NCBI GenBank assembly: GCA_043778225.1
Contig: JAYWGM010000034.1
Coordinates: forward strand, 1 to 33,482
DNA: 33,482 nt
Reading direction: 5' to 3'
Origin: Deinococcales bacterium
GTDB taxonomy: Bacteria; Deinococcota; Deinococci; Deinococcales; JAAFIG01
The position numbers and the translations under genes are program-made. The notes beneath the pieces are model-generated. The model was not told the DNA's origin. It made no database searches and saw only the letters and a program-made list of their open reading frames with translations. Each line of letters opens with the position of its first letter. Position 1 is the stretch's first letter. This document shows, one piece after another, positions 2,986-33,482 of this stretch.

Positions 2986-3043
2986 CTCTGCTCGAGGCGT
3001 AATGCCAAATGTATGATGCTAACGAGGAAGGCGATTTAGGGAT

Positions 3044-3554: not shown

Positions 3555-3574
3555 CGTTTTATTCTGCCTCGAGT

Positions 3575-7680: not shown

Positions 7681-7749
7681 TTGACTTTTGGCTGCCAAAC
7701 CCGATATTTTAATCTATAGTAAAACAGTCGGATTACTTTACTATAGGAG
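7681..7749 (+). promoter_or_regulatory. Promoter/operator region of iron-uptake operon
   Basis: TTGACT (7681)-N18-TATTTT (7705). Perfect 10-bp inverted repeat CTATAGTAAA (7714-7723) / TTTACTATAG (7737-7746). AGGAG RBS at 7745-7749. Confidence 0.55.
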
Positions 7750-7753
7750 TATC

Positions 7754-9589: not shown

Positions 9590-9592
9590 AGC

Positions 9593-10923: not shown

Positions 10924-10984
10924 AAATATGGTTCATCTTGCTGATAAAGCTCGAGTTAAGCTAAGGCTGTAAGGACAAAACGCT

Positions 10985-11992: not shown

Positions 11993-12777
11993 AACTCGAG
12001 ACGCAGCATTTAAGCCTTGGTTATGAAGATAAAATTGTTGTCGAAGATTTGAATCTGACGCTCGAGATGGGTAAAATTACCACAATTATCGGCAGCAATG
12101 GTTGCGGTAAAAGCACAATTCTACGCAGCATCGCACGGCTCTTAAAACCTAAAATCGGCGCGGTGCTGCTTGATGGTAAAGCGATTCACACCTTGCCCAG
12201 CAAAATCGTGGCGCAACAACTGGCGATTCTGCCACAAACCCCAACTGCCCCCGAGGGCATTACGGTCGAGGCACTGGTACAGTTTGGGCGTTATCCGCAT
12301 CAAAATTTTTTGCAACAACGCAGTCCGCACGATAACCAAATCATCGAACAGGCACTCGAGCAAACTAAAATGACCGAATTTAGAACCCGTCCGCTCGAGA
12401 CGCTTTCTGGTGGGCAGCGCCAACGGGCTTGGATTGCCATGAGTTTAGCCCAAGACACCCCCATACTGCTGCTTGACGAACCAACAACTTATTTAGACAT
12501 TAAGCATCAACTCGAGGTGCTGCATTTGCTTGAGGAACTCAATGCTAAAGTAGGTAAAACTGTGGTCATGGTGTTACACGACCTGAATCAAGCTGCAAGG
12601 TACAGCCATCAGTTAATTGCAGTCCAGAACGGTCAGGTGATGGCACAGAACACGCCCGAGCTGGTGCTGACCAACCAAGTGGTACGCGATGTTTTTGGCA
12701 TTGAAGCGCACTTAATTCTTGACCCAAGCAACGGCAAACCACACGTGATTCCGTTTGCCTTGGCGGTCACAAAATGA
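11989..12777 (+). CDS. Iron-complex ABC transporter ATP-binding protein (FecE/FhuC-like)
   Basis: Motifs GSNGCGKST, LSGGQRQRAWIAM, LLLDEPTTYLD and VLHDLNQA. Start is ATG 11989, overlapping the upstream stop. Confidence 0.95.
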   Translation: MKLETQHLSLGYEDKIVVEDLNLTLEMGKITTIIGSNGCGKSTILRSIARLLKPKIGAVLLDGKAIHTLPSKIVAQQLAILPQTPTAPEGITVEALVQFGRYPHQNFLQQRSPHDNQIIEQALEQTKMTEFRTRPLETLSGGQRQRAWIAMSLAQDTPILLLDEPTTYLDIKHQLEVLHLLEELNAKVGKTVVMVLHDLNQAARYSHQLIAVQNGQVMAQNTPELVLTNQVVRDVFGIEAHLILDPSNGKPHVIPFALAVTK

Positions 12778-13781
12778 TTTTAGCCAAGGCTCGAGACTCG
12801 CGGGTTTTGTGGCTATGGCTGGTTTTTCTAATCCTGTTGGGCATTTTACTATTTACTTTTTTACTTTCGATTTCGGTGGGCGCAGCCAACATTCCTCTAC
12901 TTGAGGTTTGGCGACTGGTGTTCAGCCCAGACGACACAACCAACAGTTTAATTGTGCAAACGCTACGGCTTCCAAGGGCGGTGGTGGCTTTGATGGTCGG
13001 CTCAAGCCTTGCCATCAGCGCTACGCTTTTACAGGGCGTGACTCGCAATCCATTGGCGGGACCCGGCATTCTCGGAGTCAATGCTGGGGCTGCCCTTGGC
13101 ATTCTGGTTGGAATTGTATTTTTCCCCAGCTTACCATCTGGGCTTTTTATTCTGATGGCGTTTATGGGCGGGGTAGGTGCGGCAGCCCTGACTTTTGGCG
13201 TGACGGCGGCAGTCGGTATCACCCCAGTGCGTTTGGCACTGGCTGGTATTGCCGTGGGTGCAATGTTGGCAGCTTTAACAAGTGGTATTCAGATTTTATT
13301 CGAGGAACGCGCTCGAGCCGCGATTTTTAGCTTAGCGGGCAGTCTGGCTGGGCGGACATGGGAACACGCCCAAAGTATTGCGCCGTGGTTTATGGTCTGT
13401 GTGGTTCTGGCGTTCTTTTCGAGTCAGTTGCTGAATCTGGTATCGCTTGGCGAGGACGTGGCTCGAGGGCTTGGGGTCAATGTCAATCTGGCACGGTTTG
13501 GACTGGCTGGCTTGGCGGTGCTGCTTGCCAGTGCTGCCACCAGTGTGGCTGGACCGATTGGTTTTCTGGGTCTGATGTCGCCGCATTTGGCACGTGGCTT
13601 GGTTGGGACAGATAACCGCGTTGTACTGCCACTTTCTGCGCTAATAGGCTCGAGTATTTTACTGCTGGCAGATGTCGGCGCGCGGGTTGTGGATATGCCG
13701 CTCGAGACTCCTGTGGGTATTTTAATCACCGCCATTGGCGCACCTTTTTTTGTCTATTTGGCGCGGCGAATGAAATTTTAA
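12774..13781 (+). CDS. Iron-complex ABC transporter permease (FecCD family)
   Basis: Motifs LRLPR, QGVTRNPLAGPGILGVNAGA, GPIGFLGL..PH and ETPVG..IGAPFF. Confidence 0.93.
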   Translation: MILAKARDSRVLWLWLVFLILLGILLFTFLLSISVGAANIPLLEVWRLVFSPDDTTNSLIVQTLRLPRAVVALMVGSSLAISATLLQGVTRNPLAGPGILGVNAGAALGILVGIVFFPSLPSGLFILMAFMGGVGAAALTFGVTAAVGITPVRLALAGIAVGAMLAALTSGIQILFEERARAAIFSLAGSLAGRTWEHAQSIAPWFMVCVVLAFFSSQLLNLVSLGEDVARGLGVNVNLARFGLAGLAVLLASAATSVAGPIGFLGLMSPHLARGLVGTDNRVVLPLSALIGSSILLLADVGARVVDMPLETPVGILITAIGAPFFVYLARRMKF

Positions 13782-16700: not shown

Positions 16701-17254
16701 TGCAGCTTGGCTTGTTCAAGCCGTTCGATGCTCTGAGCGCGGCGGTGGGTGGCTCTGGACAATCCAGCCGCTTCCTCGAGATAGCCAAGCATGGTGGTTG
16801 GGTTGGCGCTAATGACTGCACCAATTTCACCCTGTCCAACCACCGCAATACCGCCCGGTCCAAGTCCAGAACCGCGCAGTGCATCGTGTAAATCGCGGAC
16901 ACGCACATTCTTGCCACCCAATTCAAGCTCCGAGTCGCCATCGCGGTATAAGCGCCGTGTAATCGCTAAACCGCCCGAAGGTTGCTCGAGTTCAACTTGG
17001 ACTTCGGCTAAATTCAGGGCTTGTTTACCGCTCGAGCCATGAAAAATCAGTTCGGTGCTTTCTTTGACCCGCAATTCTCGGGTTCGGGCGGTGTGGCTTG
17101 CCCAGCGAATGGCTTCAATCACATTGGATTTGCCCGAGCCGTTGGGTCCGATTACGGCATTGACTTTGGGTGAAAACTCGAGTCTGACCCGTTCGCCAAA
17201 ACTCTTAAAGCCTAAAATCGTGATACCGCGAATACGAATCGTCACGAACCGCAT
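13778..17254 (-). CDS. smc: Chromosome segregation protein SMC
   Basis: GFKSF and Walker A GPNGSGKSN, long coiled coils, hinge motif GRATFLPL, signature LSTGE and Walker B/D-loop LDEVDAPLD. Confidence 0.96.
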   Translation of the reverse strand: MRFVTIRIRGITILGFKSFGERVRLEFSPKVNAVIGPNGSGKSNVIEAIRWASHTARTRELRVKESTELIFHGSSGKQALNLAEVQVELEQPSGGLAITRRLYRDGDSELELGGKNVRVRDLHDALRGSGLGPGGIAVVGQGEIGAVISANPTTMLGYLEEAAGLSRATHRRAQSIERLEQAKLHLSRAEDLTHEVRNRVVKLEKDAVIAQEYVALSHEVSALESAIRRSKVRVLREEIAKLNLDLLETETRAENASQSLSSLSTSLEALRLTREAKQASFAQLTAEFERLRGEAKLARERAANADTNAKALESERLRLESEIQVLAVQTLPLEPEAPNTDLAALETDFMAAKAALRVASQAELDAKIELSKMRSERDKLEREVRVQSEMNARADERRGTLWQELEQTKSELLPAQKDAASSAQALEQCKIELESAQKGADKLEREAGSITARLSLGGSRQIELRAARAPLQKEFARLEAAKNAHSYLSEGPRRALGSGIKGIIGPVSDLLRVPQDLETAVGAALGRRIENIVVENGEVAKKIIEGLKKSGGRATFLPLDILKTRPLRRNLPIASEDGVVGYAAELVESGYQLVLESLFGETLIVQTLDVGLRLARAYRDRPRLVTREGELLEAGGAVTGGRGRDTTGETFAELRRLEETKTELEGLEIEFTKLEKTLDTDREMAREAREAVTRMETRVVDLRRQTDAARQLAVQSETKRESLANRVAQLENSLGQLEPSTNSTIGDASLPDLAPQEQVVLAATSQLEVARATERSRENTWREAQNQAALYLEKQRAYQTALLRSQENQARASRIGERLEEIYLQELELKTRLEIANPEIVALETQATNLGVQEAKEELEHLEKQRLLLETDLSSTTRKVSVERENIENARLAIARRETNLETTEQELLTGTEFTDRQSHIQTLLELPDPDGTPRNWTTRTNQIRQRLEQIGAVNMLAAEEFSREQLRLSELELGAADSLAAVAELEVALDELERDVTARLKTSIGRVAKAFKEYSSELLGGEGDLETVLDETGALEGLALRVTPKGKRTRALHLLSTGERTMAALAFLFALSRAPEGHAGLPFAALDEVDAPLDEANIRRFTHFLRLLADQGTQFILVTHQKATMEIADALWGVTTDTGGISRVYSIKNESQSMAAD

Positions 17255-17814
17255 TCCTTATTGGTAAATGGCTTGCTGGTCGGGATGTGTCCGCCAACGC
17301 TGGCAACCGGTTGCCCAGCCAGCAAAAATTTGACTTTTTGAACCCCTTCTAAACCCAGCATCGTGTTGGTGATGCCGCAAAGCAACAATAATTCACCTTG
17401 AGTACCCAATTGAATTTTTTGCCAAGCGGCTTGTAAATCAATAAAAACCGTGTCTTTGTTGGCAAAAACGGTCGGTGTTGGCAAATTTTTAGCCAAAGTT
17501 AAAGCACCATCGACTTTTGGTCCTTCGATATAATTTCGCATCGCGGTGCTGGCTCGAGTCTCGAGGTCGTCGAGTTCTAAACCCGCATCGCGTTTTTCGA
17601 CCGCAAAGGATTTTCCATCTGGAGTCACAAAGTACAATTCAAGTTGTAAGCGCGAACGCGAACGGTCTTCGGGTTGCAACAATTTGGGGTCTATGGCTAA
17701 AGCCGTTGGGCGGGTCTGAAAATAGCGCACCGTTAATGTAGCCGACAACAGCAAGACCAAAATAATGTTCCAAGGCGAGAACAACCAGCGAAAAAAAAGT
17801 TTGACCCACCTCAT
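17242..17814 (-). CDS. GerMN-domain membrane-anchored protein
   Basis: N-terminal TM helix. Motifs LYF, GP, GELLLLCGITNTM...GVQKVKFL..G.....GGHI. Confidence 0.8.
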   Translation of the reverse strand: MRWVKLFFRWLFSPWNIILVLLLSATLTVRYFQTRPTALAIDPKLLQPEDRSRSRLQLELYFVTPDGKSFAVEKRDAGLELDDLETRASTAMRNYIEGPKVDGALTLAKNLPTPTVFANKDTVFIDLQAAWQKIQLGTQGELLLLCGITNTMLGLEGVQKVKFLLAGQPVASVGGHIPTSKPFTNKECGS

Positions 17815-19241
17815 TTTGGCGGTACTCCAGTAACTGGTTTTTTGACCGGCACGGGTTTACCAAGGTACTCGAGAATCCCATACGCAATCGCTTCGGCACG
17901 TTGTACACTTTCGTCGGCATTTTGTAAAATTAAGCGGTCGGCTTGGCTCGATAAATACCCCAGTTCTAAAACCACGGCTGCCTTGGGAGCGCGTTCTAAA
18001 GCCGTATGGCTGGTCAGGCTCGAGACCCGCGCTGCCCCTTGTGGCACACTCAGGATTCTGGCACTGATGGTGTCGGCAAGGCGCTGTGAAGCTGCTCTAG
18101 GGGCAAGAAAACGCGCCAAGAGTTTTCGGTCACGCTCCGATTTTGGGTTCTCGAGCGCACTTCGCCCAGCCTCGAGAATTCCTTCGGCGGGTGCGTCTGG
18201 CGATAGATAAAAGATTTCTGCGCCGTTCAAACTGGTTTGCGGCATACTCGAGAGGTGCAAAGAGACAAAAACATCGGCTTTAACCGAGAGGGCTTGGCGT
18301 TGCTGGTTAGAAACGGTCTGGTCGCCTTCGCGGGTGTATTTCATGGCAATGCCACGTGGCGCTAAAAATGCTGCAATGCGCCGTGCCATGGATAAGGTAA
18401 TGTCTTTTTCGCGCAGACCACCCGATACAATTCCAAGGTCGTTGCCACCATGTCCGGGGTCGAGAACCACAATACTTGGGCGTGCCTCGAGTGCCACCGC
18501 CAAACGACCAAAGCGTGGACCGACATCAATAATCACGCGAGCCGGAATACTTGGCGCAGCCGCCACTGCAAAGGCGTTAAAACCATAATCGGGTTTGAGC
18601 TTAATTCTGACCTCGAGCTTTTGAGCGTTTTGTTTGACTTCAAAAATATCCACAAATTTGCCGCCAACTTGGTACGGTGCGGCATCGCCAGTTGTAAAAC
18701 GCAAGGTCACAATCAACTCGTTTTTTTCAATTCGTCCCGCAAAGCTAACGTCGCGGTCTACCTCGAGAACGATGCGGTCAGATTGGTCGGTTTTATCGCT
18801 CGAGACGGTCGTCAAACGGGCTTGTGGCATACCCACCAGATAGCGACCACCAGACTCTGCAAAACTCGCACCAGCCGCTTCGGCAACGGTGCGAACTGGA
18901 ATCAGCAACTTGCCTGTGCTGCTTAAACCGGCGGCGGGCGATTTTTGTTTGATACCATTGACTTCTACACCATTGGTCCAACGGGTCGAGGCTTCACTGG
19001 CATTGTCGGCAAGTGCGAGGCGAATAATTTTGCCACCTTGGGTTAAAATCACGGCTTCGTTGGTGACTGTGTACTCGAGTCCAAGGGCAGCCGCAACCTC
19101 GAGTCCAGAATAGGCAAAACCATTGTACATCAAGGCTTTGTAGTTACTGCCCAACACTTGCAAATCTCGAGACTGGACACTTTGACCAAGTGCCAACCAA
19201 GCCGTTGTCAGCAATAAGCCAAGCCAAATAAAGCGCTTCAT
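17811..19241 (-). CDS. N-acetylmuramoyl-L-alanine amidase (Amidase_3) with signal peptide
   Basis: Motifs VVLDPGHGG.D, EKDITL, ADVFVSLH and AVVLELGYLS. The likely start is ATG 19241 (MKRFIW) after GGAG, since the longer track ORF overlaps smpB. Confidence 0.88.
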   Translation of the reverse strand: MKRFIWLGLLLTTAWLALGQSVQSRDLQVLGSNYKALMYNGFAYSGLEVAAALGLEYTVTNEAVILTQGGKIIRLALADNASEASTRWTNGVEVNGIKQKSPAAGLSSTGKLLIPVRTVAEAAGASFAESGGRYLVGMPQARLTTVSSDKTDQSDRIVLEVDRDVSFAGRIEKNELIVTLRFTTGDAAPYQVGGKFVDIFEVKQNAQKLEVRIKLKPDYGFNAFAVAAAPSIPARVIIDVGPRFGRLAVALEARPSIVVLDPGHGGNDLGIVSGGLREKDITLSMARRIAAFLAPRGIAMKYTREGDQTVSNQQRQALSVKADVFVSLHLSSMPQTSLNGAEIFYLSPDAPAEGILEAGRSALENPKSERDRKLLARFLAPRAASQRLADTISARILSVPQGAARVSSLTSHTALERAPKAAVVLELGYLSSQADRLILQNADESVQRAEAIAYGILEYLGKPVPVKKPVTGVPPK

Positions 19242-19280
19242 TGGTACATCTCCACGTGGCGCTTCATCGGTACATCTCCA
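19233..19280. repeat. 22-bp direct duplication (21/22 identical, period 26) at smpB-amidase junction
   Basis: GCGCTTCATTGGTACATCTCCA (19233-19254) and GCGCTTCATCGGTACATCTCCA (19259-19280). Confidence 0.9.
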
Positions 19281-19689
19281 TCTCACGTTTGGCGGTTTTG
19301 GTTTTCTCAGCTTCACGTTTGTCGTGCAGTTTTTTGCCTCGAGCCAGCGCAATCTCGAGTTTTATTCGTCCATTCACAAAATACAATTTGACCGGCACGA
19401 TCGTTAAGCCTTTACGAGTCACCGAACCAAATAAATCGGTCAGTTCTTTGCGGTGCAGCAATAATTTGCGTTTGCGACGTGCTTCGTGATTGTTGTACGA
19501 AGCCTTGCCGTAAGGCGGAATATACAAATTTTCTAAAAACAGCTCATTGCCTTCAAATCGCGCATAGGAATCGCGGAAATCCACCCCGCCGCCACGCATT
19601 GATTTAATTTCTGTGCCACGCAACTCGACCCCTGCTTCAAAGCGGTCAAGCAATTCAAATTCAAAACGAGCGCGGCGGTTCTCGAACAT
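19264..19689 (-). CDS. smpB: SsrA-binding protein
   Basis: Motifs NRRARF, EAGVEL.GTEIKS.R, RKRKLLLHRKE and LARGKKLHDKRE. Confidence 0.98.
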   Translation of the reverse strand: MFENRRARFEFELLDRFEAGVELRGTEIKSMRGGGVDFRDSYARFEGNELFLENLYIPPYGKASYNNHEARRKRKLLLHRKELTDLFGSVTRKGLTIVPVKLYFVNGRIKLEIALARGKKLHDKREAEKTKTAKREMEMYR

Positions 19690-21054: not shown

Positions 21055-21837
21055 TCAGGGTTTTTTGAGGGTATAAACCTCTCTTTGATTCAAGTTTTTC
21101 ATTGGTATAATTTTAGATCGAGTTCCTAAAGCAATATCCAATGCAATAAGACTATCTGACGAGTTAGATACTGTTGGTATGGCTGGATTGTCCACAACGG
21201 TATTTAAAGTTGTCGCAACCACCACCACAAAGTAGGCGCGACTTGGATTGAGAACATCGACTGGAATCTCCACAGTATTTCCCAAGGTATAAATTGTACT
21301 TGAGACCACTTGATTGATAGAGGCATCAAGAACTCGAGCATAATAGCCAATTGCACCCATGACAGGCAGCCAATTTACCCTGACTTTTTGGAAGTTATTC
21401 TCATTGACATAAGCGGTTGTACCTGTGGTTAAAGGCAAACGATTATTTGAATCTATAATTTGGAAATTTGACTCGAGTTGTTCCCCATCAATGACCAGAC
21501 GCACCACATACTGACCCACAACCAAGGGAATTTTTGCCTGTGGCGCACTTACCCAAGAACTACCTGCGGGATACGAAAAGAAAATAGGCTGACCATTATT
21601 CCATGTCTTCGGACCCATAAAAGTTACCTGTCCGTTTGTAATCGGCAGTTTACCTTGCAAGGTACGAAGTTTTACGACAATGTTTGTACCCATGCTTGTT
21701 TCTGGTTGTCCCACATTAGTTTGTTGGACATAAGAACCTCCAGCGACCTCGAGCGTGTATTTTGATGGTACTGGTGGACAACCCACCAGTACCAAACTGA
21801 GTAAAAGGGAAATAATCAACCCTAGCTTCTTTTTCAT
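21055..21837 (-). CDS. Lipoprotein of unknown function (beta-sandwich/FN3-like C-terminal part)
   Basis: Lipobox signal MKKKLGLIISLLLSLVLVGC. VNW.PV.GA.GY pattern. ATGA overlap with the giant gene. Confidence 0.8.
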   Translation of the reverse strand: MKKKLGLIISLLLSLVLVGCPPVPSKYTLEVAGGSYVQQTNVGQPETSMGTNIVVKLRTLQGKLPITNGQVTFMGPKTWNNGQPIFFSYPAGSSWVSAPQAKIPLVVGQYVVRLVIDGEQLESNFQIIDSNNRLPLTTGTTAYVNENNFQKVRVNWLPVMGAIGYYARVLDASINQVVSSTIYTLGNTVEIPVDVLNPSRAYFVVVVATTLNTVVDNPAIPTVSNSSDSLIALDIALGTRSKIIPMKNLNQREVYTLKKP

Positions 21838-24800
21838 TGCTTCCCATCCCTTAAATACGTGTCAACTTCTTCGTGAAGCCTAGGGTTTGACAAAACAGAA
21901 GCATTTTGTTGAGTTTGACTGGTCAATTTTGGCTCTGGCAATTGGACACTAAAATGATCAATTATACTTTGTGTGGCAGTCGCATAGAGTGTTGCTCCTG
22001 TACCTCTGGATGTATTTTCCGAGTCACGTCCTGATTTTGCCCAGAAGGTATTAGCTAAACCTGCGTTGCCTGAATTTAGGGCATATAAACGAACACCGTT
22101 ACCAGAGTATCCGTTATAACTCGAGATAAGTACAGTACCGTTGGACAGAAGGGCTGGATCGTAAAGGCTCGAGGTGGCTGATCTAAACTGCCAACGAATG
22201 CTTCCGTCTTGTGCAATGGCTAAGAGTTTTCCACCAGAGATTAAGAACGTTGTGCCATCAGAAGCAAGGACAAGTGATTCGCCATTATTTGGCAGAGTGG
22301 TACTGGTCATTAATGTACCTGTACTGGAGACGGTATAAAGCTGTGTACCAGCTACTCGAATTGACCCACCAGCCAAGATAACCAAATTGCTTAGTTGTTC
22401 ATCTGGGAAATTCAGTGTCCATGCTTGAACCCCATTTGGATTGAAGGCGTAAATCCTTGATCCTGTAGTGAGATAGATTTGGTTGTTGATACCAACCACA
22501 GGCTCATGAATACATTGCATTTCCAACTCTTTTTGCCAAAGCATTGTACCTGTTGCACTGATGGTATCGAGGTAACAACGACCTCCACCTGAGTATTGCC
22601 AATGACTAAAGTAGATTGTGCCATCACTTGATGTTGAGAGTGCTCCACTATTTGCATAAATACTTTGTTGCCAGATTTCAATACCATTGGCGTTAAAGTA
22701 TCGTAAGTTGCTTCCATTATGGACAACCACTGCCCCGTTTGCTGCTAAAGCCATTGGCATGGTGCTAATTTGATAACCAATGCTTTGTTCCCAAAGTTTT
22801 GTGCCAGTTTTACTAAATGCCATGAGCATAGATTCGGAGTAATAATTTTCTTTAATAACACTGATATATAAGCGATTCTCTGATGTTAGGATAATATTTT
22901 TTACATACCCACCAACTGATTTGCGCCAACGTTGTGTACCATCAGCTGCGAATGCCACAATTTCATCCATATTTCCAGCGTACCAACTGCCGTCTTGTGC
23001 AATGGCAACCGAAGTGCCAACATCATTGAAGGCTTGTTTTGCTGCACCTAGTAGCTGTTTATCCAAAACCAGATTGCTGATTTGGCTTGAGACTTGATTT
23101 TGTATAATTGGTGCATTAAAGACTTTTGAATCAGAATTCAGGTCGTCTGAAGCAGTAACTTCCATTCGTGCTTCTGCTAGGGTATTAGACTGTTCTGAAA
23201 GTAAGAAGTATGCTTCGTAGTAGCCAGTAGAATTGGTTACTAATGAGTTATAAAAGTATCCGCCGATGTTGACTTTGGCATTTGCGATTGCTAGACCAGA
23301 ACCATCACGCACATATCCACTTAGTTTTATGGTTGTGATGGGTATTGCAATTTGGGTGTTGACTCGAGAAGTCGTATTAACCGAACCAGAAGGGGAAATT
23401 AGGCTAATCGTCTTTGAGCCATAGGTGGATGTAACTTCTGCTGTGGCATTAAAACCCGAGAGTTGGTTTACCATTGCTGTACAAATATATTGTCCGTTGG
23501 AACTTTCGTCTTGACACAAAAGTTGCCCGTCCATATCTTTGATTTTTACGGTGGCAGGAATGGAGGATGTTGGTTGGTATTCATTAAAAATCGTGCCGCT
23601 AAATTCAATTAGGCGGTATGAGCCAGCCTTTGGTGTTGCTTGATTACTATTTTGGTTGTTTCGTGCGAATTTTGCCCAATCAGAAACTGCTAAACCTTGA
23701 GATAAAGACTTTACTGCAATTACAGCGCCTAGATTATTTGAGCGATTCCAAGTACCAACATACAAAGTACCGTCATTACCAAGTACAAAATTCTCGAGTG
23801 ACAAAGAATTATCGTAAAACCATCGCACAGCCCCATTTTCAATGGCGTACAATCTACCAGTGTTTGTGGCTGCGTAAATCCAACCATCTGCCCCAACTGC
23901 AAGGGCTTGAACATTTCCGTTGGTAGTTACTTGCCATTGAAGCTGATCGCCTTGTTGAGTTTTACTTATTGCACTGATATTACTTTGGTTATAATAGTAA
24001 GCACTGTCGCTGGCTGTGATAATCCAACCATTTGCAGTAATAACAGGGGAAACTCTTGTTGAACTAAAGAATACTTCATTGTTGGCATTAACAGCTACGC
24101 TACCAACTGAATTTGATGATGTGCGTAACGAGCCATCGTAATTGTAAATAAATACTTGGTTACTTTGGTTGGTCGCATAGATTGTTCCATCTGCGCCAAT
24201 AACAGGGGCATAACCACCACTTGGGAAATCCACTGCCCAGCGTTGACTACCCGTGCCGGTAAGAGAAAAAAGCTGAGTTGCGGTGGTGAAAAAAAGTGTT
24301 CCAGCTGAACCGATAGCTGGGGCAGAGGCAGGATAACCTGTAGTAAATGTCCAACTGCTTGAGCCATTGGCATTAAATGCTCTAAGCGCCCCATTGTTAT
24401 AACCACCAGTACCAACGTAGATAATGCCACTTGGATCAACCGATAAACCTGTTGCGGGTGAGTTTAAGCTAACATTCCAACGTTCAGAACCATCTGCATT
24501 TAAGGCAAATAACTTACCACCAGAATTTTCATTGACCAGCGCGTACAAAACACCATCTGGTGATAAAGCTGTTCCCACAACAGGTCCGGCTCGATTCAAA
24601 GTCCAACGGGCTGAACCAGGTGCATTGGCATCAAGGGTGAAGTTAATGGTCTTCTGGTTCAAAACACCATTCGTTAAAGCCAGCACATGGTCATTGGCAC
24701 TAGAAAGCGTGCCACTCGAGGCTCGGACTGTCCAAGTTGCACTTGTTTTTTCTATCGGGAAACGCTTTTCGATGAAATAGCTACCTGTGGTACTGGCAAC

Positions 24801-27800
24801 GAGGGTGGCACTGACATCACCAGAAATCACCACATTGGCATTGGCAACAGGTTGTCCTACATCATTGGTAACGACACCAGATATTTTTAGGGTAGTGACT
24901 GAAATACCTAAATTCTGAGTGATTTGTTGAACTGTTCCAACACCACCAGATGCAATGGCTACTGAGGCACTGGTTTCGCCAAATCCACCTATGGCTTTTG
25001 CTGTTGCTTGAATCCCACCAAATTCAGTTGTGGGAGCGCTACAACTATACTGCCCTGTGGTATCTGTCCATGTCGAACAGAGTGTTTTGCCAGCACTATC
25101 TTGAATTTTGACCTGATAATCTGGTAAGCCAGACTGAGCTTGATTGACATTCCTGACCACACCCACAAATCGAATCATTCGTTGCGAGACATTGATAGCA
25201 GGCATGGCACTATTGTTCTGATTATTTCCCGAATCACTAATTGCCCATGAGGAGGTCGCCAAGCCGACATTACTGGCATTAAGCGCAATTAACTTCCCAT
25301 TAGCAAGTGTTGTGTAAATAACACCACTTGGGCTTAGGGTCGAAGCAGAAGCATTATATTCTGGGTATGTCCAAGCCGAAAGCGTTCCGTCAGCTTGTAC
25401 TGCCTTAATGAAAAAACTTCCTTGTATTAAAAGTGACCTGTCCGATGTGATTAACATGGACTGAAGGCGATCATTTACAGGTAGAGTATACCTTTTGACA
25501 ATCTGACCACTTGAATTGTATTTGATAACTTCGTTCGTTCCATAGCGGGTAGTTAAGAAAATAGACCCGTCACTATCAATAATAGCTAAGTTGCCCCCAC
25601 CCTCTTGGGCTGTCCATAAATCATCGCCATTTGAAGCTCGAGCAGTTAAAAGACCTGAATTTGGATCTGTAAAGAACAACCGAGAATCTGAACCGATGCC
25701 AAGCAAAACAGGTTGACCATACGAATTTAAGAACTTATCGTGCCAACGTGTTGAACCATCTGGATTGACCGCTCGAAGTCCGTCTTTAAGCACAACATAT
25801 ACCGTCCCATCTGGTGCAACAATGGGTTTTGTTGGCGCAAAAGCCCTATTGGTTACTTGTCCAGATTGAACAACCCATTCTACTTGACCTGATGAATTAA
25901 ACGCCTCGAGCTTGGACCCATCACCAGAAACTGCACTACTCACGGCATAGACCACGCCCGATGGTACGATGGTGAAATGATAATCATAAGCGGTACTCAA
26001 AGTAATCGTTCGTAAAAACTGCCCCGATTGAGAAAAGTGAAACAATGCAGGTTGATTAGCAAGACTACCAAAGACATACACACTTTGGTCAAAAGCAACC
26101 AATGGTGATCTTCTATCCAACTGCCCTGTTGCTGGAGAGGTTTCCCATTGCTTTTGACCCGGTTCGTTATAAGCTATCAACTTGCCACTGGCAACCAAGT
26201 AAACAAGCCCATTTGTACCTAAAACTGGGTTAGAGACGTTTGACGGATCAAGCGGGATAGACCAACGAACTGTCCCAAGTTCTGTGTTGACCAACATAAC
26301 ATCTTTAACGACAACATTAGGTCCTAGTGCTTGAAGTGGGGAAGCAACATTGGTATTGAATGTATTGACACCATCCGTGACTTTCACCTTTACTTCAACA
26401 CTGTTTTGAGAAGATAACATTGTCAGTACAGCCGTGTACTTGCCATCTATATCGGTTTCTAGGTTTGTAAACGAGAATTCTGTGGGGGTGGTAGCAAACT
26501 TCAATTCAACTCGAGCTTTATTAACCACTTGACCATCGGCTTGTTTAACCACACCAGAAATCCGCAGATTGGTGTACGGCATTTTGGTTATCACACGCGG
26601 TAATGCAGTTACAACACCTGTAGGGATAATAAAGGTTTGCTCCTCGAGTAAGACATTGGCAAACAACCCAGCACCAGGATTGAACTGAATTCTGCCAAGA
26701 CCCTTACCTGTTGTCGCCCCCATCGGTAAGACCATATTTACAGTGTACTGCCCTTGTGCATCAGTATAGGTTTTTTGCAGGATTCCAGAGATAACCACCT
26801 CAGCATTGGTCAAGGCTCGCCCAGTTTGATCGGTTACTAAACCACCAAATTGAACAATGGTTGGTGTAATCGCAACATTCTTTTCAAGCTGCGTGGCTTG
26901 GGGGTTAGCCGGAATAATATCAAAACTCTGCTGTGTTGCCGCACTGACCAATTCACCACCAAGCAAAACTCGGTACTCGAGATCAAGTTTTGAACGGCGA
27001 GCAATACGCTTGGTTGGGCAGTAATAACCACCAAGCGAAGTGACATCAGTTGTGCATAAAATGCCGACATCCTCAGATGAACCCTGCCCTGAGATAACCA
27101 ATTTCAGCCCAGAGGCATTAATAGTGTTATTGCTTGTAATTTGACCAGTTAAATAAACCTCATCACTATCTAAGTTCACACTTAAAGCCAAGTTCTTTGG
27201 TATTTCAAGGGCTGTTCCAACAGCAGGACTGGTAAAATTAACTGTGGCAGTAGCCGAGGCTTCTAAGGTCAGCGGCGGTGGCGCACGGTAGAAGGTACTG
27301 AGTTGAATAGTTCCAGAGGTTTGGGTAGCAAGTAAGGCAATGGGAAGACTGTACATACCTTTAGCATTGGCAACCGCAGAAAATAAATCCGAACCAATCT
27401 GGGCGTTAATGACCACATTTGGCAGGGCTAAACCTTGTGCATCGGTGGCTTGACCAACTACTTTTAAGGTGGTTGGGGAAACCGCAAAGTCTCGAGTTAC
27501 GGCAGGACGAATTGAAGTTCCTTCGGCTGGGTTGACATCAACACCCGTTATGGTTGCCACACCACGCTCTGAGACAGTGTACTCAACCTTAAATGGCTCA
27601 AGGGTAATCAGAGGATAATCACAAGAATACAAACCCTGTACATTGGTTGTGGTGATACAAATTGGAATGTTGGTTGGGGTTAAACGCTTAATCACCACTT
27701 TGGCATAGGGGACTGGTGCATTATCCGCCAATTGATTAGAAACTTTACCTGTAAAAACCAGTGTGCGTTGTTCAACCACCAAGTCCTGAACTTGTACCAA

Positions 27801-30800
27801 GATGGTATTGGCATTCAGGCTATCAATTTGCTTTGTTGTTTTAGCTTCAACACCCAACGCCTTGACCGTGTAATCCACAATAATAGGAGCAGTTTGTGAA
27901 TCTGGAATTGCAACATAAGCCAAGTAATGTCCATCTGAACCTGATTTACCAGTAAAAGTTCTTGACCATGTGGCTGTCCGAATTACAAAATTCAAATCAG
28001 CATCAGGTAGATCACGCCCACCACCACGAACTAGACCCTCGAGTTTTAAGGTCGTCGGACGCAATTTTAGATCAGGTAATTCAAAACGAGTATCTGACCC
28101 CGCAATAGGCACAACAGGAACATCCACCTCTACAGGTGTAAAAGCACCAAAACCAGAAATACTAACCATGACCTTGAATGGCTGCGTTGCTTTCACGTCG
28201 GCATAGCATAAGTACCCGCCACCGGCTTGCACCATGGTTTCGCAAACATCACCGACAATCGCACCAACACCACGAATCGAAACTTTAGCTCCAGGCACAG
28301 GTGTGTTCGCTACCAAATCATTTAAGACTAAACCACTAAAAATGATTTTGCCAGGCGCAGGGGTTAAAGAACGCACAGGCAAAACTGGGGTTGCCAAAGT
28401 AACCAAGGCAATATCTCGAGTTAAATTCGACATACCTAAAGCAAGCGAATCAACATTGACTTCAAAAATATTCTGAGCTGTCCGATCTGCGCCAGTCACT
28501 TCATACCGTAAACGACCAGCATCCACACCATCTGGTAACGGCACAAGCAACTCATAAGCACCATCTGTACCCGTAAACACAGACCCAGAAGCCATACCCG
28601 AAACAAACACGGTTGCCTTCGCTGCACCAACCCCAGAAACTATGCCTTTGAGTCTAAGAACACGCTGAACAGCCGTCGTAAAGTCCTGATTCACACCAGC
28701 CCCAGCAAAATGAGCAGGCGTATCCACCATCACACTACGTTCCTGCACAGTCCCACGACCAGACACACGATAATTCAATTGAATTTGTGCGGCACTTGGC
28801 GGTGGAACAGAAACACTACAACTGTACATACCAGCATCATTGGTGGCGACTTCACAAACCTTACCAATTTGCGGCGAAGAAATCAGCACTGTCACCCCAG
28901 CCACCCGAGCATCAGACAGATTAGACAAAGTAACTGTACCGCTCACAGATACTCGAATAAACGGCGCAGGAGGTGTAATTTTAGCCACACGACCCTCGAA
29001 GCACAAACCATTGGCTAACAAATTCTTTTCTGTACGCCCCACTGCTAACTCGAGCGCCAGTGTTTGAATATACACATCCCCAATAGCCGCTAAATTGGCT
29101 TGACAAACCCCAAGTAATGTCTTGGCTCGAGCCACAAAACCACCATCTAATAATTGTTGTGCGGTTGGACGCAATTCGGTTTGCACAATGTTAAAAGTCG
29201 CGTGAGATTCGGGAGTTTGATAAGTAAATAACGAATTCTGCGGTGTGGTACGCCAAGCCTCCATAAATTGCGAGTGCGATGTGGCTTGAACACCAGATGG
29301 TAACGCCCAATCATCCAATTTATCACCGTTAATTAAACCAAATACACCAGAGTAACGACCAGCTTCAGGCGTTGTAAATTCAATAGTCAACGAAGAAGCA
29401 AGTTCAGTTGTATCAGCCCGCACAAAATCAGACTGCGGATTCATCCCCATCTGCAACCTCGAAATACCCTGAGCCGAGCCGACTTTATCGACAGGCAAGT
29501 TATACTCATGCCACCAAACAACCACATTGCCATTCTTCTCGAGTACCAAAACAGCCTCGTCAATGGCATACTCACCCGTTGCCAAATTGACCTTCTGACC
29601 ATCCACAAGTACCACCAAAGGCTCTAAAACAGATAACGATTTAGGCAATTGCACTTCAATGGTATGTTTGCCAACTTTAACAACCGCAGCCGTATTAAAC
29701 GAAGCCCACAACGGATACCCCGCCAAACGACCATGCCGTGACTGCACCACAACACCATCAGGCACATTTGAACGAGCTAAAATAAACTCTCCAAGCTCCA
29801 TACTGGTAAAGCCAAACCCATCTGGGGTTTGAATATGTGGATCGCCATGTGCAGAACCAGAGCGCATATTGTTGGTTTGACCAGAAGTATTGACCGCACG
29901 AGCCACCTGATTAGGTGGTCCAGCACCAGCATTAGAATTTGAACCACCAGAACCACTACTCGGGATAGGTGGAATACCACCACGCAAACCAGAGTACGTG
30001 GATGGAGAACTGCTACCACCAGGACCACCGTCACAAGTACCACCAGCACCAGCTGGCGGTTTAATTTTCTCAATTTCACTTAAAATTTTAATCTGAAAAT
30101 TACGTGTAAACGAAATTGGTTCTTGTTCTGTGATTGTGGGATTGTAGTTTAGTTTAATCTGGCTCGAATGACCACCAGCCGCCAAGGGTACTTTGAAGGT
30201 TAAACTGCGTACTTGATTACCAGGTACTAAAAAGCCTTTAGGGGAAGAATCATAAAAAATTTCGCCCACACTCATTTCCGCCGCTTTTGAATTAATCTTT
30301 GCAATGAAATCCAGATTTTGATCAGGATCAACGTTTTTCCCTTTACAATCTGAAACTTTGGGATCATATTCTTTCTTTTTGAATTCAAGAATCGCGCCTT
30401 CGGTAATTGGCTCTCCCGCCAGTATAAAAGTAGGCTCGAGCTTCACGCATTCCAGTTCTACTTGAACTCGGTCTATACTTGTGACACCATTTGCGGTGTA
30501 TTTCAAATTAACAAAACCAATTTTTGACTCATCTGCATTTGGACAGGTGGTTTCAAAAGAAACAGGCTTTGTATTTTCTGTAGCAGCAACCACGCCGTTA
30601 CTGATTGGTGACACCCAATCAGGCTTGCTTACTATTTCAAAATTAATAGGTAATTTTGGTTGAGCGTTTGGCTCTGTGCGCTCAAGAGCAAACTTTGCAA
30701 GGCGTTTCTTACCTGCCATAGATTGGACTTTGACAACTTTCGGGGTTGCGTCGAGGGGCTGCTTTTCGCAAACGAAATTCATGGGAATAGGGTCAACTTG

Positions 30801-33482
30801 GTTAGTTTTACGCCCTTGAATCTCAATTGAAATGGCTGGTGCGCGTGCTTTTGATAAAGTCGTATTTGGAGGATTAAAAGGATTGGTATCACCAGGTATC
30901 TCACCATACCAACCATTGTGTGAAATGGATAACCAACCTTTTTCGTCAGCTCGATTTTGATTTTGTTGAAATTTTGTGCTGTCACATATTGCCCCGACTT
31001 CAACTTCCAATATACTTTTTTGGGAAACGGTGTATTCTTGTTCTATAACTAATGGGACAATGGCAGGGTCATTCGTTGGTGTTTCTTCATACTTGAATTT
31101 GAATTTGAGATCACCACAACCAGAGTTTGTGATTGTCATCTTTTGAGTTTGCGTATCAACACCACTATTTAATTTTTTTAGGTCAATGTTTATTGGTGCA
31201 AAGTTGAAAGAAATTTCAGGATCGTTTTGAAGACGTGCGCTTAAAAAATTTCCATCTTTTTCATTTACAAGACTTGACCCAAGTTCAGCCAGAGATTTTA
31301 CGGTAGAGAGAAGGTCTGCTATTTTTAAGAACATGGCAAGATTTTTTAAGCGGTCAACACCAACACCTGTTAAATTGTCAATGTAGGCATCCCGTTTATC
31401 TCCCAGAGCAACACCTGTAATACTACTGATAATATCGGCAGCAAAAGTAGCACCTGGTCGTGCGAATGCTTTTGCTATATTTATCCAATCTGTTGGAGCA
31501 GCAACTTTAGGATCAAAGTTTTTGTACTGCTGAGAGACGTTATAAAAATTACTAGCCAAACGCAAAAAAGCCAAATAGACTTCTTGTACTTCGGATGGCT
31601 TTAAGTTTTTAAAGTCAAAAGAAAGTCCAAAAAGGTCAGCTAAACCAGTTGCAACCACCATAATGTTATAAAAACCATCTGAGGTAAATTTGCCTGTTTG
31701 AGGGTCAAAAAATTGGGAATAAAATAAATCAACCTTTCTACAATCGTCAACTGGCATTGGAAACATAATGGGTTTGGCTAAAGCGTTAATAAATATGTCT
31801 ACAAAATCCACACCCGTGACATCATTTGCACCGCCTAAAGAAACTCTTGGCTCATACACGGCACTACCCTCTAATTTCGGAAAAAAACTGGTGTACAAAG
31901 AAGTTAATGACCGAAGCGTATACTCTTTTTTTGCTGCTTGGTCTATCAGTGCCAAAGTCAAAAGCTGATTATTAAGCACCTTGGAGTATATTCCCTGATT
32001 ACCACTTGGCTTAGGTTTTCCTACTTCTTGGGCATCTGTTTTTGCAAAGTTTTTTTGAACTGGTTTATTGGTTGCCGCCCAACCAGAAAAAAGTGATTTC
32101 AGTGTCATGTCGAACGTATTGGTTGTTTCATCGGACTTTGGTAACGCAGCCAGAACTATTGGAATTCGTAATTTTAAGTTTGAAATGATATTTGAAGTGA
32201 TTTCTGCTGCAAGTTCACGTTGCTTTACAGTCAGTGTAATGGTTGTTAGTTCTGAAACCAACGAATAGAATTCGTTCCACTTAGGATGAGATATAAACAT
32301 AGAAATAACTTCGTCTGTAACATTAAATTTTCGTGTATTGGCATCGAATTCGGAAGCTAAAAGTGCCAAAGCAGTATTGCGTTTAGAAAACGATAAAAAT
32401 GCTTTACTTGGCATCACAAAATCCATTGCTAAAACATTTTTATTTTGGTCGCGCAAAAAAGCATAATGAATAGAATCTGGAGCAATAAACGTAGAAATTA
32501 CGTTTTTCCCAACAACATTACTCATTAGTATTGTTTCGGTTTGAATCTCGACCGTATTTGGATTGAAATTACCAAGACGAAAATTAACATCTGCTGCCCA
32601 AAAATTGTTGACACTTCCCAAAGCTTTTTGAGCATTCGGAAGTTTTGTTATGTCAAAACTTGGTGCTTGTAGCGTAAATATTGCTGTTTGAACACGGTTA
32701 CTTAACAGAATAGATGTTTGTAGTGGCGCACTTGTTTGTAACGTATCAAGGTCTGTTTTTATCACAGCAGTGTAGTTGACATTGCGACGCAAACGAACAT
32801 TGCCCGTCCAAGTCTGTAACCCTTCACGCCTTAATTGTACTGTTCGTTTAGCAGCAACTCCGCCATCCCGCCCACCGACAACATTTTGAGGCTCGAGAAT
32901 TGCCGTTAAAGCATTGGCATACAAAGGCACATTATTGACCATCAACTGCAAAATACTATTTGACCCACTGGTATCTGGGCGTTTAGGGTTAATGATGTTG
33001 ATAAAACGATACACACAAGTTAAACGAAATTTGGGCGAAATAAAACAAGCTGTGACTACCTGAACACCAGCATTGGTGTAAGTATGCTCGAGGTCAAGGG
33101 TTGTAAGCCATTCGGGTACATTTTGTATGTTAAATTTACCATCGCCCCAAAGTACAAGAACCTTACCCAAAGCAGCACCATCGGCACTTTGAGCCGCTAA
33201 TGACAATTTGACCGATGTTTTCATATCGGCTTTGTCTGGCAAAGCAACACTATTAAAAATGGGTGGCATATCAATGGCACTGACCTTTGAAATAACCACA
33301 ACAAATTTGGCTGGTTTAGTATCTTTAAGTGTAATACTTTGCGAACCCTGATAACGTAAAGTATTATTAACATCACGTCCTTCGACAACCAAAGGTAAAT
33401 CCGTTCCAGTTTCAACATCTGCCAATGTGGCAATCATTTCGCCATTACGAACTTGTAAAGTTTCGGACGAGTCTGCAACACT
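21834..33482 (-). CDS. Giant multidomain surface/secreted protein (PKD-like, VWD with GDPH, carboxypeptidase-regulatory-like repeats, three PQQ-like propellers); 5' partial
   Basis: The frame stays open from 33437 to the window edge (SVADSSETLQVRNGE-MIAT...), giving more than 3,880 aa. WGDG...HTY (PKD-like), HGDPHIQTPDG..F....GEFILAR (VWD), repeated G.V.D..G..L..A.V...T...G.Y units, and repeated DG..RW / P..G.DG.IY blades. Confidence 0.9.
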   Translation of the reverse strand, partial: SVADSSETLQVRNGEMIATLADVETGTDLPLVVEGRDVNNTLRYQGSQSITLKDTKPAKFVVVISKVSAIDMPPIFNSVALPDKADMKTSVKLSLAAQSADGAALGKVLVLWGDGKFNIQNVPEWLTTLDLEHTYTNAGVQVVTACFISPKFRLTCVYRFINIINPKRPDTSGSNSILQLMVNNVPLYANALTAILEPQNVVGGRDGGVAAKRTVQLRREGLQTWTGNVRLRRNVNYTAVIKTDLDTLQTSAPLQTSILLSNRVQTAIFTLQAPSFDITKLPNAQKALGSVNNFWAADVNFRLGNFNPNTVEIQTETILMSNVVGKNVISTFIAPDSIHYAFLRDQNKNVLAMDFVMPSKAFLSFSKRNTALALLASEFDANTRKFNVTDEVISMFISHPKWNEFYSLVSELTTITLTVKQRELAAEITSNIISNLKLRIPIVLAALPKSDETTNTFDMTLKSLFSGWAATNKPVQKNFAKTDAQEVGKPKPSGNQGIYSKVLNNQLLTLALIDQAAKKEYTLRSLTSLYTSFFPKLEGSAVYEPRVSLGGANDVTGVDFVDIFINALAKPIMFPMPVDDCRKVDLFYSQFFDPQTGKFTSDGFYNIMVVATGLADLFGLSFDFKNLKPSEVQEVYLAFLRLASNFYNVSQQYKNFDPKVAAPTDWINIAKAFARPGATFAADIISSITGVALGDKRDAYIDNLTGVGVDRLKNLAMFLKIADLLSTVKSLAELGSSLVNEKDGNFLSARLQNDPEISFNFAPINIDLKKLNSGVDTQTQKMTITNSGCGDLKFKFKYEETPTNDPAIVPLVIEQEYTVSQKSILEVEVGAICDSTKFQQNQNRADEKGWLSISHNGWYGEIPGDTNPFNPPNTTLSKARAPAISIEIQGRKTNQVDPIPMNFVCEKQPLDATPKVVKVQSMAGKKRLAKFALERTEPNAQPKLPINFEIVSKPDWVSPISNGVVAATENTKPVSFETTCPNADESKIGFVNLKYTANGVTSIDRVQVELECVKLEPTFILAGEPITEGAILEFKKKEYDPKVSDCKGKNVDPDQNLDFIAKINSKAAEMSVGEIFYDSSPKGFLVPGNQVRSLTFKVPLAAGGHSSQIKLNYNPTITEQEPISFTRNFQIKILSEIEKIKPPAGAGGTCDGGPGGSSSPSTYSGLRGGIPPIPSSGSGGSNSNAGAGPPNQVARAVNTSGQTNNMRSGSAHGDPHIQTPDGFGFTSMELGEFILARSNVPDGVVVQSRHGRLAGYPLWASFNTAAVVKVGKHTIEVQLPKSLSVLEPLVVLVDGQKVNLATGEYAIDEAVLVLEKNGNVVVWWHEYNLPVDKVGSAQGISRLQMGMNPQSDFVRADTTELASSLTIEFTTPEAGRYSGVFGLINGDKLDDWALPSGVQATSHSQFMEAWRTTPQNSLFTYQTPESHATFNIVQTELRPTAQQLLDGGFVARAKTLLGVCQANLAAIGDVYIQTLALELAVGRTEKNLLANGLCFEGRVAKITPPAPFIRVSVSGTVTLSNLSDARVAGVTVLISSPQIGKVCEVATNDAGMYSCSVSVPPPSAAQIQLNYRVSGRGTVQERSVMVDTPAHFAGAGVNQDFTTAVQRVLRLKGIVSGVGAAKATVFVSGMASGSVFTGTDGAYELLVPLPDGVDAGRLRYEVTGADRTAQNIFEVNVDSLALGMSNLTRDIALVTLATPVLPVRSLTPAPGKIIFSGLVLNDLVANTPVPGAKVSIRGVGAIVGDVCETMVQAGGGYLCYADVKATQPFKVMVSISGFGAFTPVEVDVPVVPIAGSDTRFELPDLKLRPTTLKLEGLVRGGGRDLPDADLNFVIRTATWSRTFTGKSGSDGHYLAYVAIPDSQTAPIIVDYTVKALGVEAKTTKQIDSLNANTILVQVQDLVVEQRTLVFTGKVSNQLADNAPVPYAKVVIKRLTPTNIPICITTTNVQGLYSCDYPLITLEPFKVEYTVSERGVATITGVDVNPAEGTSIRPAVTRDFAVSPTTLKVVGQATDAQGLALPNVVINAQIGSDLFSAVANAKGMYSLPIALLATQTSGTIQLSTFYRAPPPLTLEASATATVNFTSPAVGTALEIPKNLALSVNLDSDEVYLTGQITSNNTINASGLKLVISGQGSSEDVGILCTTDVTSLGGYYCPTKRIARRSKLDLEYRVLLGGELVSAATQQSFDIIPANPQATQLEKNVAITPTIVQFGGLVTDQTGRALTNAEVVISGILQKTYTDAQGQYTVNMVLPMGATTGKGLGRIQFNPGAGLFANVLLEEQTFIIPTGVVTALPRVITKMPYTNLRISGVVKQADGQVVNKARVELKFATTPTEFSFTNLETDIDGKYTAVLTMLSSQNSVEVKVKVTDGVNTFNTNVASPLQALGPNVVVKDVMLVNTELGTVRWSIPLDPSNVSNPVLGTNGLVYLVASGKLIAYNEPGQKQWETSPATGQLDRRSPLVAFDQSVYVFGSLANQPALFHFSQSGQFLRTITLSTAYDYHFTIVPSGVVYAVSSAVSGDGSKLEAFNSSGQVEWVVQSGQVTNRAFAPTKPIVAPDGTVYVVLKDGLRAVNPDGSTRWHDKFLNSYGQPVLLGIGSDSRLFFTDPNSGLLTARASNGDDLWTAQEGGGNLAIIDSDGSIFLTTRYGTNEVIKYNSSGQIVKRYTLPVNDRLQSMLITSDRSLLIQGSFFIKAVQADGTLSAWTYPEYNASASTLSPSGVIYTTLANGKLIALNASNVGLATSSWAISDSGNNQNNSAMPAINVSQRMIRFVGVVRNVNQAQSGLPDYQVKIQDSAGKTLCSTWTDTTGQYSCSAPTTEFGGIQATAKAIGGFGETSASVAIASGGVGTVQQITQNLGISVTTLKISGVVTNDVGQPVANANVVISGDVSATLVASTTGSYFIEKRFPIEKTSATWTVRASSGTLSSANDHVLALTNGVLNQKTINFTLDANAPGSARWTLNRAGPVVGTALSPDGVLYALVNENSGGKLFALNADGSERWNVSLNSPATGLSVDPSGIIYVGTGGYNNGALRAFNANGSSSWTFTTGYPASAPAIGSAGTLFFTTATQLFSLTGTGSQRWAVDFPSGGYAPVIGADGTIYATNQSNQVFIYNYDGSLRTSSNSVGSVAVNANNEVFFSSTRVSPVITANGWIITASDSAYYYNQSNISAISKTQQGDQLQWQVTTNGNVQALAVGADGWIYAATNTGRLYAIENGAVRWFYDNSLSLENFVLGNDGTLYVGTWNRSNNLGAVIAVKSLSQGLAVSDWAKFARNNQNSNQATPKAGSYRLIEFSGTIFNEYQPTSSIPATVKIKDMDGQLLCQDESSNGQYICTAMVNQLSGFNATAEVTSTYGSKTISLISPSGSVNTTSRVNTQIAIPITTIKLSGYVRDGSGLAIANAKVNIGGYFYNSLVTNSTGYYEAYFLLSEQSNTLAEARMEVTASDDLNSDSKVFNAPIIQNQVSSQISNLVLDKQLLGAAKQAFNDVGTSVAIAQDGSWYAGNMDEIVAFAADGTQRWRKSVGGYVKNIILTSENRLYISVIKENYYSESMLMAFSKTGTKLWEQSIGYQISTMPMALAANGAVVVHNGSNLRYFNANGIEIWQQSIYANSGALSTSSDGTIYFSHWQYSGGGRCYLDTISATGTMLWQKELEMQCIHEPVVGINNQIYLTTGSRIYAFNPNGVQAWTLNFPDEQLSNLVILAGGSIRVAGTQLYTVSSTGTLMTSTTLPNNGESLVLASDGTTFLISGGKLLAIAQDGSIRWQFRSATSSLYDPALLSNGTVLISSYNGYSGNGVRLYALNSGNAGLANTFWAKSGRDSENTSRGTGATLYATATQSIIDHFSVQLPEPKLTSQTQQNASVLSNPRLHEEVDTYLRDGKQ

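Follow-up and report, generated by a model that had tools for sequence, protein, structure and literature searches.

A giant open reading frame in the window (the whole 33,482-nucleotide stretch of DNA that was analysed, which is the entire contig G000:C34) contains a predicted VWD plus C8-like fold in which a GDPH motif would place a cut, in the register of the cleavage sites of animal VWDs, at Asp1214/Pro1215. On the basis of a structural model, this domain probably cleaves itself between these two residues. A tentative reading, plausible although we would not call it probable, is that the protein is a lipid-anchored surface filament whose self-cut VWD leaves a sheddable 283-kDa stalk with three propellers, held by one beta-strand. 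Under this proposal, Sec export and lipidation would take place at the missing N-terminus, the Asp side chain would attack to give an anhydride that would be hydrolysed by water, and the two halves would be held via beta1 until a change in force, pH or ions separated them; the stalk and propellers may have a role in adhesion or in a matrix.

The reading frame was stop-free, and its 5' end was open at the end of the contig (Table 1). By homology, about 190 residues are missing from this end and the full-length protein would have about 4,070 aa. Positions 31500-33414 were covered with zero differences by contigs from runs X1 and X2; these runs are a possible source of this DNA and so not independent of it. 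Pfam analysis of the giant ORF detected PQQ_2 (1.4e-42), Beta-prop_ACSF4 in three stretches and CarboxypepD_reg; the boundaries of the three propellers are our own reading and not profile edges. A preliminary description of this DNA had given the ORF more than 3,880 aa and a particular order of parts, and both agreed with the frame and the Pfam results. The WGDG/HTY stretch at aa 80-165 is one that we take to be PKD-like, and PKD gave zero Pfam matches in the giant ORF. Four of the approximately nine stalk domains had a Cys pair, and the first unit resembled transthyretin-like sandwich folds in a VIA fold comparison of the model (Z scores of 8.5 to 10.2). Identity with BamB or a PQQ dehydrogenase was rejected (TIGR03300, 86.7 bits against a cut-off of 285.2), and the source name "BamB" on the relatives P0009 and P0057 is a propeller-fold label only.

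Table 1. Positions in the window of the giant reading frame, its parts and the adjoining lipoprotein gene
Feature	Position	Strand	Remarks
Giant ORF	21834..33482	-	3,882 codons, 5' part missing
Conserved N-terminal anchor-side beta domains, aa 1-270	32673..33482	-	PKD-like stretch (aa 80-165) inside
Variable cassette, aa 275-760	31203..32660	-	Similar only to P0009/P0153 and P0057
Cys-containing beta region, aa 761-1140	30063..31202	-	Presumed Ig-like, from a reading of the sequence
Gly/Ser/Pro linker, aa 1142-1205	29868..30059	-	56% G/S/P
VWD strand beta1, aa 1206-1212	29847..29867	-	Model strand E7-13; Cys-free
GDPH motif	29835..29846	-	Predicted cut Asp1214/Pro1215
VWD core without cysteine, aa 1215 to ~1435	29178..29840	-	Model, fold searches, Cys count
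C8-like helical domain	28983..29162	-	Model helices; two conserved cysteines, C1460 and C1494
Stalk, ~9 transthyretin-like/CarboxypepD_reg beta-sandwich domains, aa 1508-2400	26283..28961	-	Pfam PF13620; first unit modelled
PQQ-like beta-propeller 1, ~aa 2403-2760	25203..26276	-	Pfam; boundaries read off sequence
Stalk domain pair, ~aa 2768-2950	24633..25181	-	Pfam and Cys-pair motif
PQQ-like beta-propeller 2, ~aa 2955-3285	23628..24620	-	Pfam PF13570, best stretch 2956-3143
Stalk domain pair, ~aa 3290-3470	23073..23615	-	Cys-pair motif
PQQ-like beta-propeller 3, ~aa 3475-3830	21993..23060	-	Pfam PF13360, best stretch 3488-3615
Partner lipoprotein P0001, 260 aa	21055..21837	-	Start overlaps giant gene stop (ATGA)

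The VWD assignment was made because of a structural model, fold searches and Pfam-positive homologues, and not from Pfam on the ORF itself: Pfam VWD (PF00094) gave zero matches to the domain of the giant ORF, which fell below threshold, and several homologues scored over the cut-off. An AlphaFold2 model of residues 1200-1600, obtained with a 35-sequence alignment, had a mean pLDDT of 89.5. In a Foldseek search with this model, the best 40 matches listed were all VWD-bearing chains (E values of 1e-12 to 3e-5); MUC2, VWF, MUC5AC, MUC5B and FCGBP took the first ranks, and no bacterial VWD structures were among the fold matches listed. Z scores of 19 to 22 to VWF, MUC2, MUC5AC and FCGBP were observed in VIA comparisons, and the alignment with VWF (8d3c; Z 22.1, rmsd 3.7, 236 aligned residues, model residues 4-302) took in the helical domain after the VWD, hence the name C8-like. 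The model and these scores supported the earlier expectation that the region folds as a VWD. Cysteines C1460 and C1494 of the C8-like domain were present in 46 and 45 of 47 alignment rows, respectively, whereas an animal C8 has eight cysteines. A calcium site may be formed at the TxDG and G-x-x-D-G..ND loops.

The GDPH motif, which the preliminary description had put at nucleotides 29835-29846 and at residues 1198-1201 of its ORF, was found at exactly that place (residues 1213-1216 of the open frame, or 1198-1201 from the ATG at 33437; nucleotides 29846-29835). It occurs once in the ORF, against a composition-based chance expectation of 0.004. Model strands E7-13 and E17-19 lie either side of GDPH, which would make it the beta1-beta2 turn, and in FCGBP and RGMB the motif likewise lies between beta1 and beta2. 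The cleaved FCGBP D10 chain 8qci_B, which starts at residue 4081, aligned with the model from model residue 16, that is, Pro1215 (Z 19.1, rmsd 2.5), and the RGMB chains, which start at 169, began to align at the same residue. In the model, the Asp-Pro bond is therefore in register with proven cleavage sites, as had been claimed. In FCGBP, the Asp side chain initiates cleavage, the Asp and His are required and Gln4094 gives partial support (PMC10880436, available part). The equivalent of Gln4094 is Met in the window protein and is variable across the family.

The loss of this Gln is one point in favour of GDPH being a structural turn in an ordinary, uncleaved adhesin domain, a reading that we consider distinctly improbable. 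Conservation of the motif bears on it directly. A full-library search with residues 1200-1500 returned 722 proteins at E ≤0.001, and analysis was performed on the best 150 of these 722. Alignment A1 combined the query with 46 of those 150, picked as non-animal matches with the sub-family pattern and hence not blind to the motif; Asp-Pro-His was present in 45/45 rows that span the site (47 rows, 2 of them N-terminally truncated). When the best 150 of 722 were aligned to a profile, 118 low-cysteine proteins contributed 134 domains, and 114 of these had x-D-P-H; low cysteine is a proxy for non-animal origin and not taxonomy. The other 20 of the 134, which include GDVH (10 domains) and GEPH (3 domains), would fit an uncleaved turn, as would the long branch (0.96) of the window VWD in a quick tree. 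Many animal VWDs, however, fold without GDPH, and yet D, P and H are invariant here across phyla; furthermore, GDPH is cleaved in FCGBP, in RGM and in bacterial MIIA domains.

In the same quick tree (140 domains), the 46 family rows and 2 others clustered with an SH-aLRT value of 99 and stood apart from the animal CGLC sequences, among other low-cysteine VWDs; the tree was midpoint-rooted, and the direction of origin is not readable from it. Members with names came from Deinococcales, Herpetosiphonaceae, Chloroflexaceae, Roseiflexaceae and Cystobacter. Judged by sequence, the family spans Deinococcota, Chloroflexota and Myxococcota, with a constant core of VWD, C8-like domain and stalk and with modules swapped on both sides. 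The domain was matched in 11 of 251 Deinococcota genomes (own included), with a strong match in one other only, and its distribution is therefore patchy. A scan of genome contigs by alignment yielded 5 loci from 15 stretches, and the scan by single protein yielded zero matches. Six further proteins (P0058, P0087, P0091, P0111, P0142 and P0144) were large and nearly Cys-free, with one to several VWD-like domains and, in some, GEPH or other variants.

The source genome has other relatives of the domain. A second copy on contig C93 is a 5'-open paralogue of 5,181 aa (L002:3-15545) with RDPH at the GDPH position and more stalk and propeller repeats; in G006, its orthologue (L040) is complete, is a lipoprotein and carries GDPH. 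The sole match in a six-frame VWD profile search of the genome was a 942-aa lipoprotein on contig C28 (L001:520-3345), which has a Pfam-positive GDPH VWD of a different sub-family.

A distinct difference from FCGBP and the mucins was detected in the cysteines, as the window protein has none in beta1 or at CGLC. The VWD core contained 0 Cys in 44/44 members checked, and the CGLC position was Cys-free in 136 of 137 low-cysteine domains versus C..C in 118 of 188 cysteine-rich domains. A disulfide across the cut is therefore not expected, and beta1 (aa 1206-1212) would be the sole structural link over it. The 16 Cys downstream of the predicted cut form 8 local pairs. A Cys lies ≤12 residues upstream of the Asp in 17 of the 44 members but not in the window protein (the nearest is C1150); in those 17, this Cys has no partner in the core and may pair elsewhere. 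Fragmentation of VWDs that lack the beta1 disulfide has been considered possible (PMC10880436, available part), and the Cys-less C-terminal domain of ITIH is released, its Asp binding glycans (PMC11670116, likewise seen in part).

Cleavage could instead be a maturation step that locks the VWD-C8-like fold, so that the halves stay together for life and nothing is released. This alternative is unlikely in our estimate, though it is one to be taken seriously. Cleaved FCGBP D10 gains resistance to proteases and heat, mainly a stabilisation of the fold, and C8 normally packs onto beta1-beta3 (both from the available part of PMC10880436). The model fits this canonical packing, with the C8 helices over beta1-beta3, and such packing on beta1 would resist separation. 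We count this arrangement against shedding, together with the Met at the Gln4094 position. Members without an anchor at either end also retain the motif. Against a purely stabilising role, the beta1 disulfide of FCGBP and the mucins is gone in 44/44 members, though disulfides are used elsewhere in these proteins, and the site is kept at a fixed border between flexible linker and stalk.

The tentative shedding proposal depends on which half is anchored. The N-terminal 270 residues of the frame showed 27 to 43% identity to lipoproteins in genomes G010, G018 and G009 and to P0009, P0057, P0006, P0008 and P0145, and 7/7 full-length proteins with this N-terminus (G010, G009, P0009, P0057, P0006, P0008 and P0145) had a lipoprotein-type signal. 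For the sequence upstream of the window, a 3'-open lipobox ORF on contig C15 (C15:1-468, minus strand) was found as a candidate start, but its join to the window is only approximate. This ORF matched P0009 residues 2-143 (E value of 2.6e-12), P0009 from residue 197 matched the window protein from residue 2, and a single G010 ORF, preceded by the same small divergent gene, could be aligned to the C15 ORF as well as to the window protein. The lipoboxes of the C15 ORF and of the seven full-length proteins were identified by eye or with a pattern. A 174-base record at approximately double depth in runs X1 and X2 (maybe the source) covered the final 98 bases of the window and continued beyond, and a record on C15 had a loose end of matching size (120 bases) that shared 8 bases with the window end. 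Several diverged tandem copies of the N-terminal segment were present in other records of these runs, and the C15-C34 join point is thus approximate. Very probably, the absent start resembles the lipoprotein segment at the end of contig C15. Slightly diverged tandem copies of the giant N-terminal segment, one of them stop-terminated, were present at L008:1-1405 on C15, and the source contigs carry further variants. Each tandem copy adjoins a small divergent lipoprotein gene (C15:454-906, plus strand), which occupies the same place in G010.

No hydrophobic 19-mer was detected anywhere in the giant ORF, nor was a C-terminal membrane or wall anchor. The anchor is placed before the cut because relatives have a lipoprotein N-terminus and the C-terminus has no anchor. 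After the predicted cut, the N-half would have about 1,400 residues and the C-half 2,668 residues (283 kDa). The polarity first proposed, in which the N-terminal 1,200 or more residues were released or covalently attached, would therefore be reversed as regards release: with an N-terminal anchor, it is the stalk and propellers that could be released. Many Chloroflexota-type members had a plain signal peptide and no evident anchor at either end, and "shedding from the cell" cannot therefore hold family-wide.

A third use of the cut would be an ITIH-like clip-and-link reaction, in which the Asp1214 anhydride acylates a glycan, peptidoglycan or a lysine, so that the N-half is tied to the envelope, the matrix or a neighbouring cell and the C-half leaves. 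This we regard as improbable. Cys-less ITIH heavy chains do release their C-terminal domain and bind glycans (PMC11670116 and PMC8267560, available parts), an RTX clip-and-link precedent is cited in PMC8267560, and the long flexible linker upstream of beta1 would suit such a reaction. In FCGBP, however, the available text of PMC8267560 reports that the anhydride was hydrolysed and that a cross-link was looked for and not seen. An elaborate C-half of 2,668 residues is also hard to see as a discarded propeptide, and no dedicated acceptor gene is evident beside the ORF. Cross-linking by the anhydride, which the preliminary description had raised, may thus claim ITIH as a precedent but, with FCGBP as the counterexample, is by analogy a minority reading.

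The region before the cut is variable in these proteins. Comparison of P0006 with P0008 gave 75 to 90% identity over the first 450 residues, 14 to 21% over the next 900 (the cassette) and mostly 53 to 81% after the VWD, where one stretch of 150 residues fell to 28%. A similar dip was observed between the window protein and P0009 (33 to 40, 19 to 25 and 37 to 41%). The window cassette (aa 275-760) had 23 to 24% identity to its relatives and zero Pfam matches, and the Cys-bearing region (aa 761-1140) had approximately 20% identity to P0009. For aa 275-800, no match was found among proteins below 2,135 aa, no usable Atlas match was obtained and no metagenome locus was confirmed (0 of 90 stretches); a single-sequence model of the cassette was uninformative (pLDDT of 34.6). 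When 36 family proteins and 11 locus pieces were scanned with Pfam, Lipase_3 (P0008), GDPD (P0025 and P0026), S8 (P0040) and M23 (P0011) were detected before the motif, along with CBM6, F5/8, ice-binding-like, EGF, cadherin and PKD modules. Modules beyond the stalk comprised PQQ-like, NHL, LVIVD/PD40, legume lectin, laminin B and HYDIN-type Ig types. Immediately before beta1, some members had a Gly/Ser/Pro linker, others a Gly-Trp-rich stretch and others a long hydrophobic hairpin (P0016 at approximately aa 1355-1400, P0031, P0033 and L015); cleavage would leave this hairpin as the C-terminal end of the N-half.

These enzymes and hairpins before the cut, the swapping of cassettes and the tandem N-terminal copies with their small variable lipoprotein genes would fit a polymorphic effector, in which the pre-GDPH cassette would act as a toxin or lytic enzyme and the small lipoproteins encoded nearby would confer immunity. 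We rate this as highly improbable, since the variability lies on the side of the anchor, the reverse of what is described for polymorphic toxins (PMC3482391, available part), in other relatives the same place is taken by CBM6, ice-binding-like, EGF or cadherin modules, the window cassette has no toxin match, and the partner lipoprotein is conserved and not cassette-specific.

Counting the source genome, 12 of 41 related genomes had homologues of this partner lipoprotein (P0001). At two G018 loci the homologue was the next gene after a giant gene, and in G009 and G006 it was one gene away, but homologues occurred in unrelated contexts too; Atlas returned only unnamed clusters below 0.9 and fn3-like look-alikes for P0001. 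On contig C33 of G009 (L010, L011 and L039), genes for a DUF11/SdrD_B adhesin and for the partner lipoprotein come after a family member of 8,651 codons. Elsewhere in the window are an iron/heme uptake-like cluster (7688-13781: two periplasmic binding proteins, a DUF2470 protein, a nitroreductase-like protein, two FecCD permeases and an ABC ATPase), an XisI-family gene (4841-5176) and, at 17242-19352, a gene for a protein with Amidase_3 and copper-amine-oxidase-N domains, an adjoining GerMN protein gene and then smc.

The closest known systems are the GDPH-cleaving VWDs (FCGBP, MUC2, MUC5AC, RGM and BMPER; PF00094; D assembly VWD-C8-TIL-E), which the window protein resembles in its predicted VWD and C8-like helices. 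Unlike animal D assemblies, it is bacterial, has a single VWD by the family profile and falls below the Pfam VWD threshold. The label "mucin/FCGBP-like" did not hold for the whole protein: beside the one VWD, there is no TIL/E cysteine pattern, no mucin PTS tract in the giant ORF (peak Pro plus Thr plus Ser of 33 per 100 residues) and no IgGFc-binding (FCGBP_N) Pfam match in the ORF or the C15 start, and a transthyretin-like stalk and propellers follow. The ITIH heavy-chain C-terminal domain and the sponge wreath domain (PMC11670116, seen in part) share the Asp-Pro hairpin between strands 1 and 2 and the lack of Cys, but their VWD-like domain is terminal and released, with the N-part coupled to glycan, whereas the window VWD is central and precedes the long C-half. 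The ZU5-autopeptidase bacterial surface proteins (available part of PMC3482391) are likewise large and autoproteolytic, with adhesion modules, lipases and phosphodiesterases; they differ in fold and use a thiol or hydroxyl nucleophile, versus Asp-Pro in a VWD. Diatom adhesive trail proteins (bioRxiv 10.1101/2023.03.06.531300 and 10.1101/2020.02.11.942037) also have GDPH/VWD in secreted, adhesion-linked proteins, but in the available parts of these sources they are described as diatom-specific, PTS-rich and eukaryotic, with no lipid anchor or TTR stalk.

Bacterial GD/PH cleavage itself is already known from the MIIA/DUF1521 domains (NopE1, NopE2 and VIC_001052; PF07481), in which autocleavage occurs after the Asp of GDPH, as predicted here (PMC6506597, available part). 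Those domains are very acidic (42 acidic of 171 residues, versus 22 of 190 in the window core), fold with Ca2+ and belong to type III-secreted effectors, and PF07481 had no match in the genome at E values up to 10. The window protein is a bacterial GDPH-VWD variant with predicted cleavage. Among open-access papers, without their supplements, none was found on bacterial VWD-GDPH surface proteins or on this architecture; supplements and subscription papers may list them. The view that the combined architecture was uncharacterised therefore stood as far as open-access papers go, but the protein belongs to a family of dozens and is not a one-off. Furthermore, bacterial VWD matches are routine in Pfam scans.

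A broader proposal, possible but doubtful, is that these proteins share a widespread bacterial Cys-free VWD-C8-like "breakaway joint", with swappable cell-side cargo (enzymes, binding modules or hydrophobic hairpins) and stalk-borne tips that part on a mechanical or chemical cue. Such a joint would predate or parallel the animal D assembly, contrary to the view of a eukaryotic invention. In the available part of PMC4948705, VWD is placed in early eukaryotes and VWD-C8 first in choanoflagellates, and bacterial FCGBP_N is reported; a diverse bacterial family with VWD and C8-like domains, apart from the animal sequences in the quick tree, reopens this question of origin. The available part of PMC10880436 describes the purpose of GDPH cleavage as unknown for any VWD and reports that the recombinant MUC2 C-terminus retained uncleaved GDPH. 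In a Cys-free protein of a bacterium, with its anchor before the cut and 283 kDa beyond it, that purpose can be tested with a simple expression system, and a small disulfide-free domain that is predicted to cleave itself may be of use as a protein-engineering tool. If the shedding proposal is true, bacteria would be able to shed or renew giant adhesins without a protease, by a new route.
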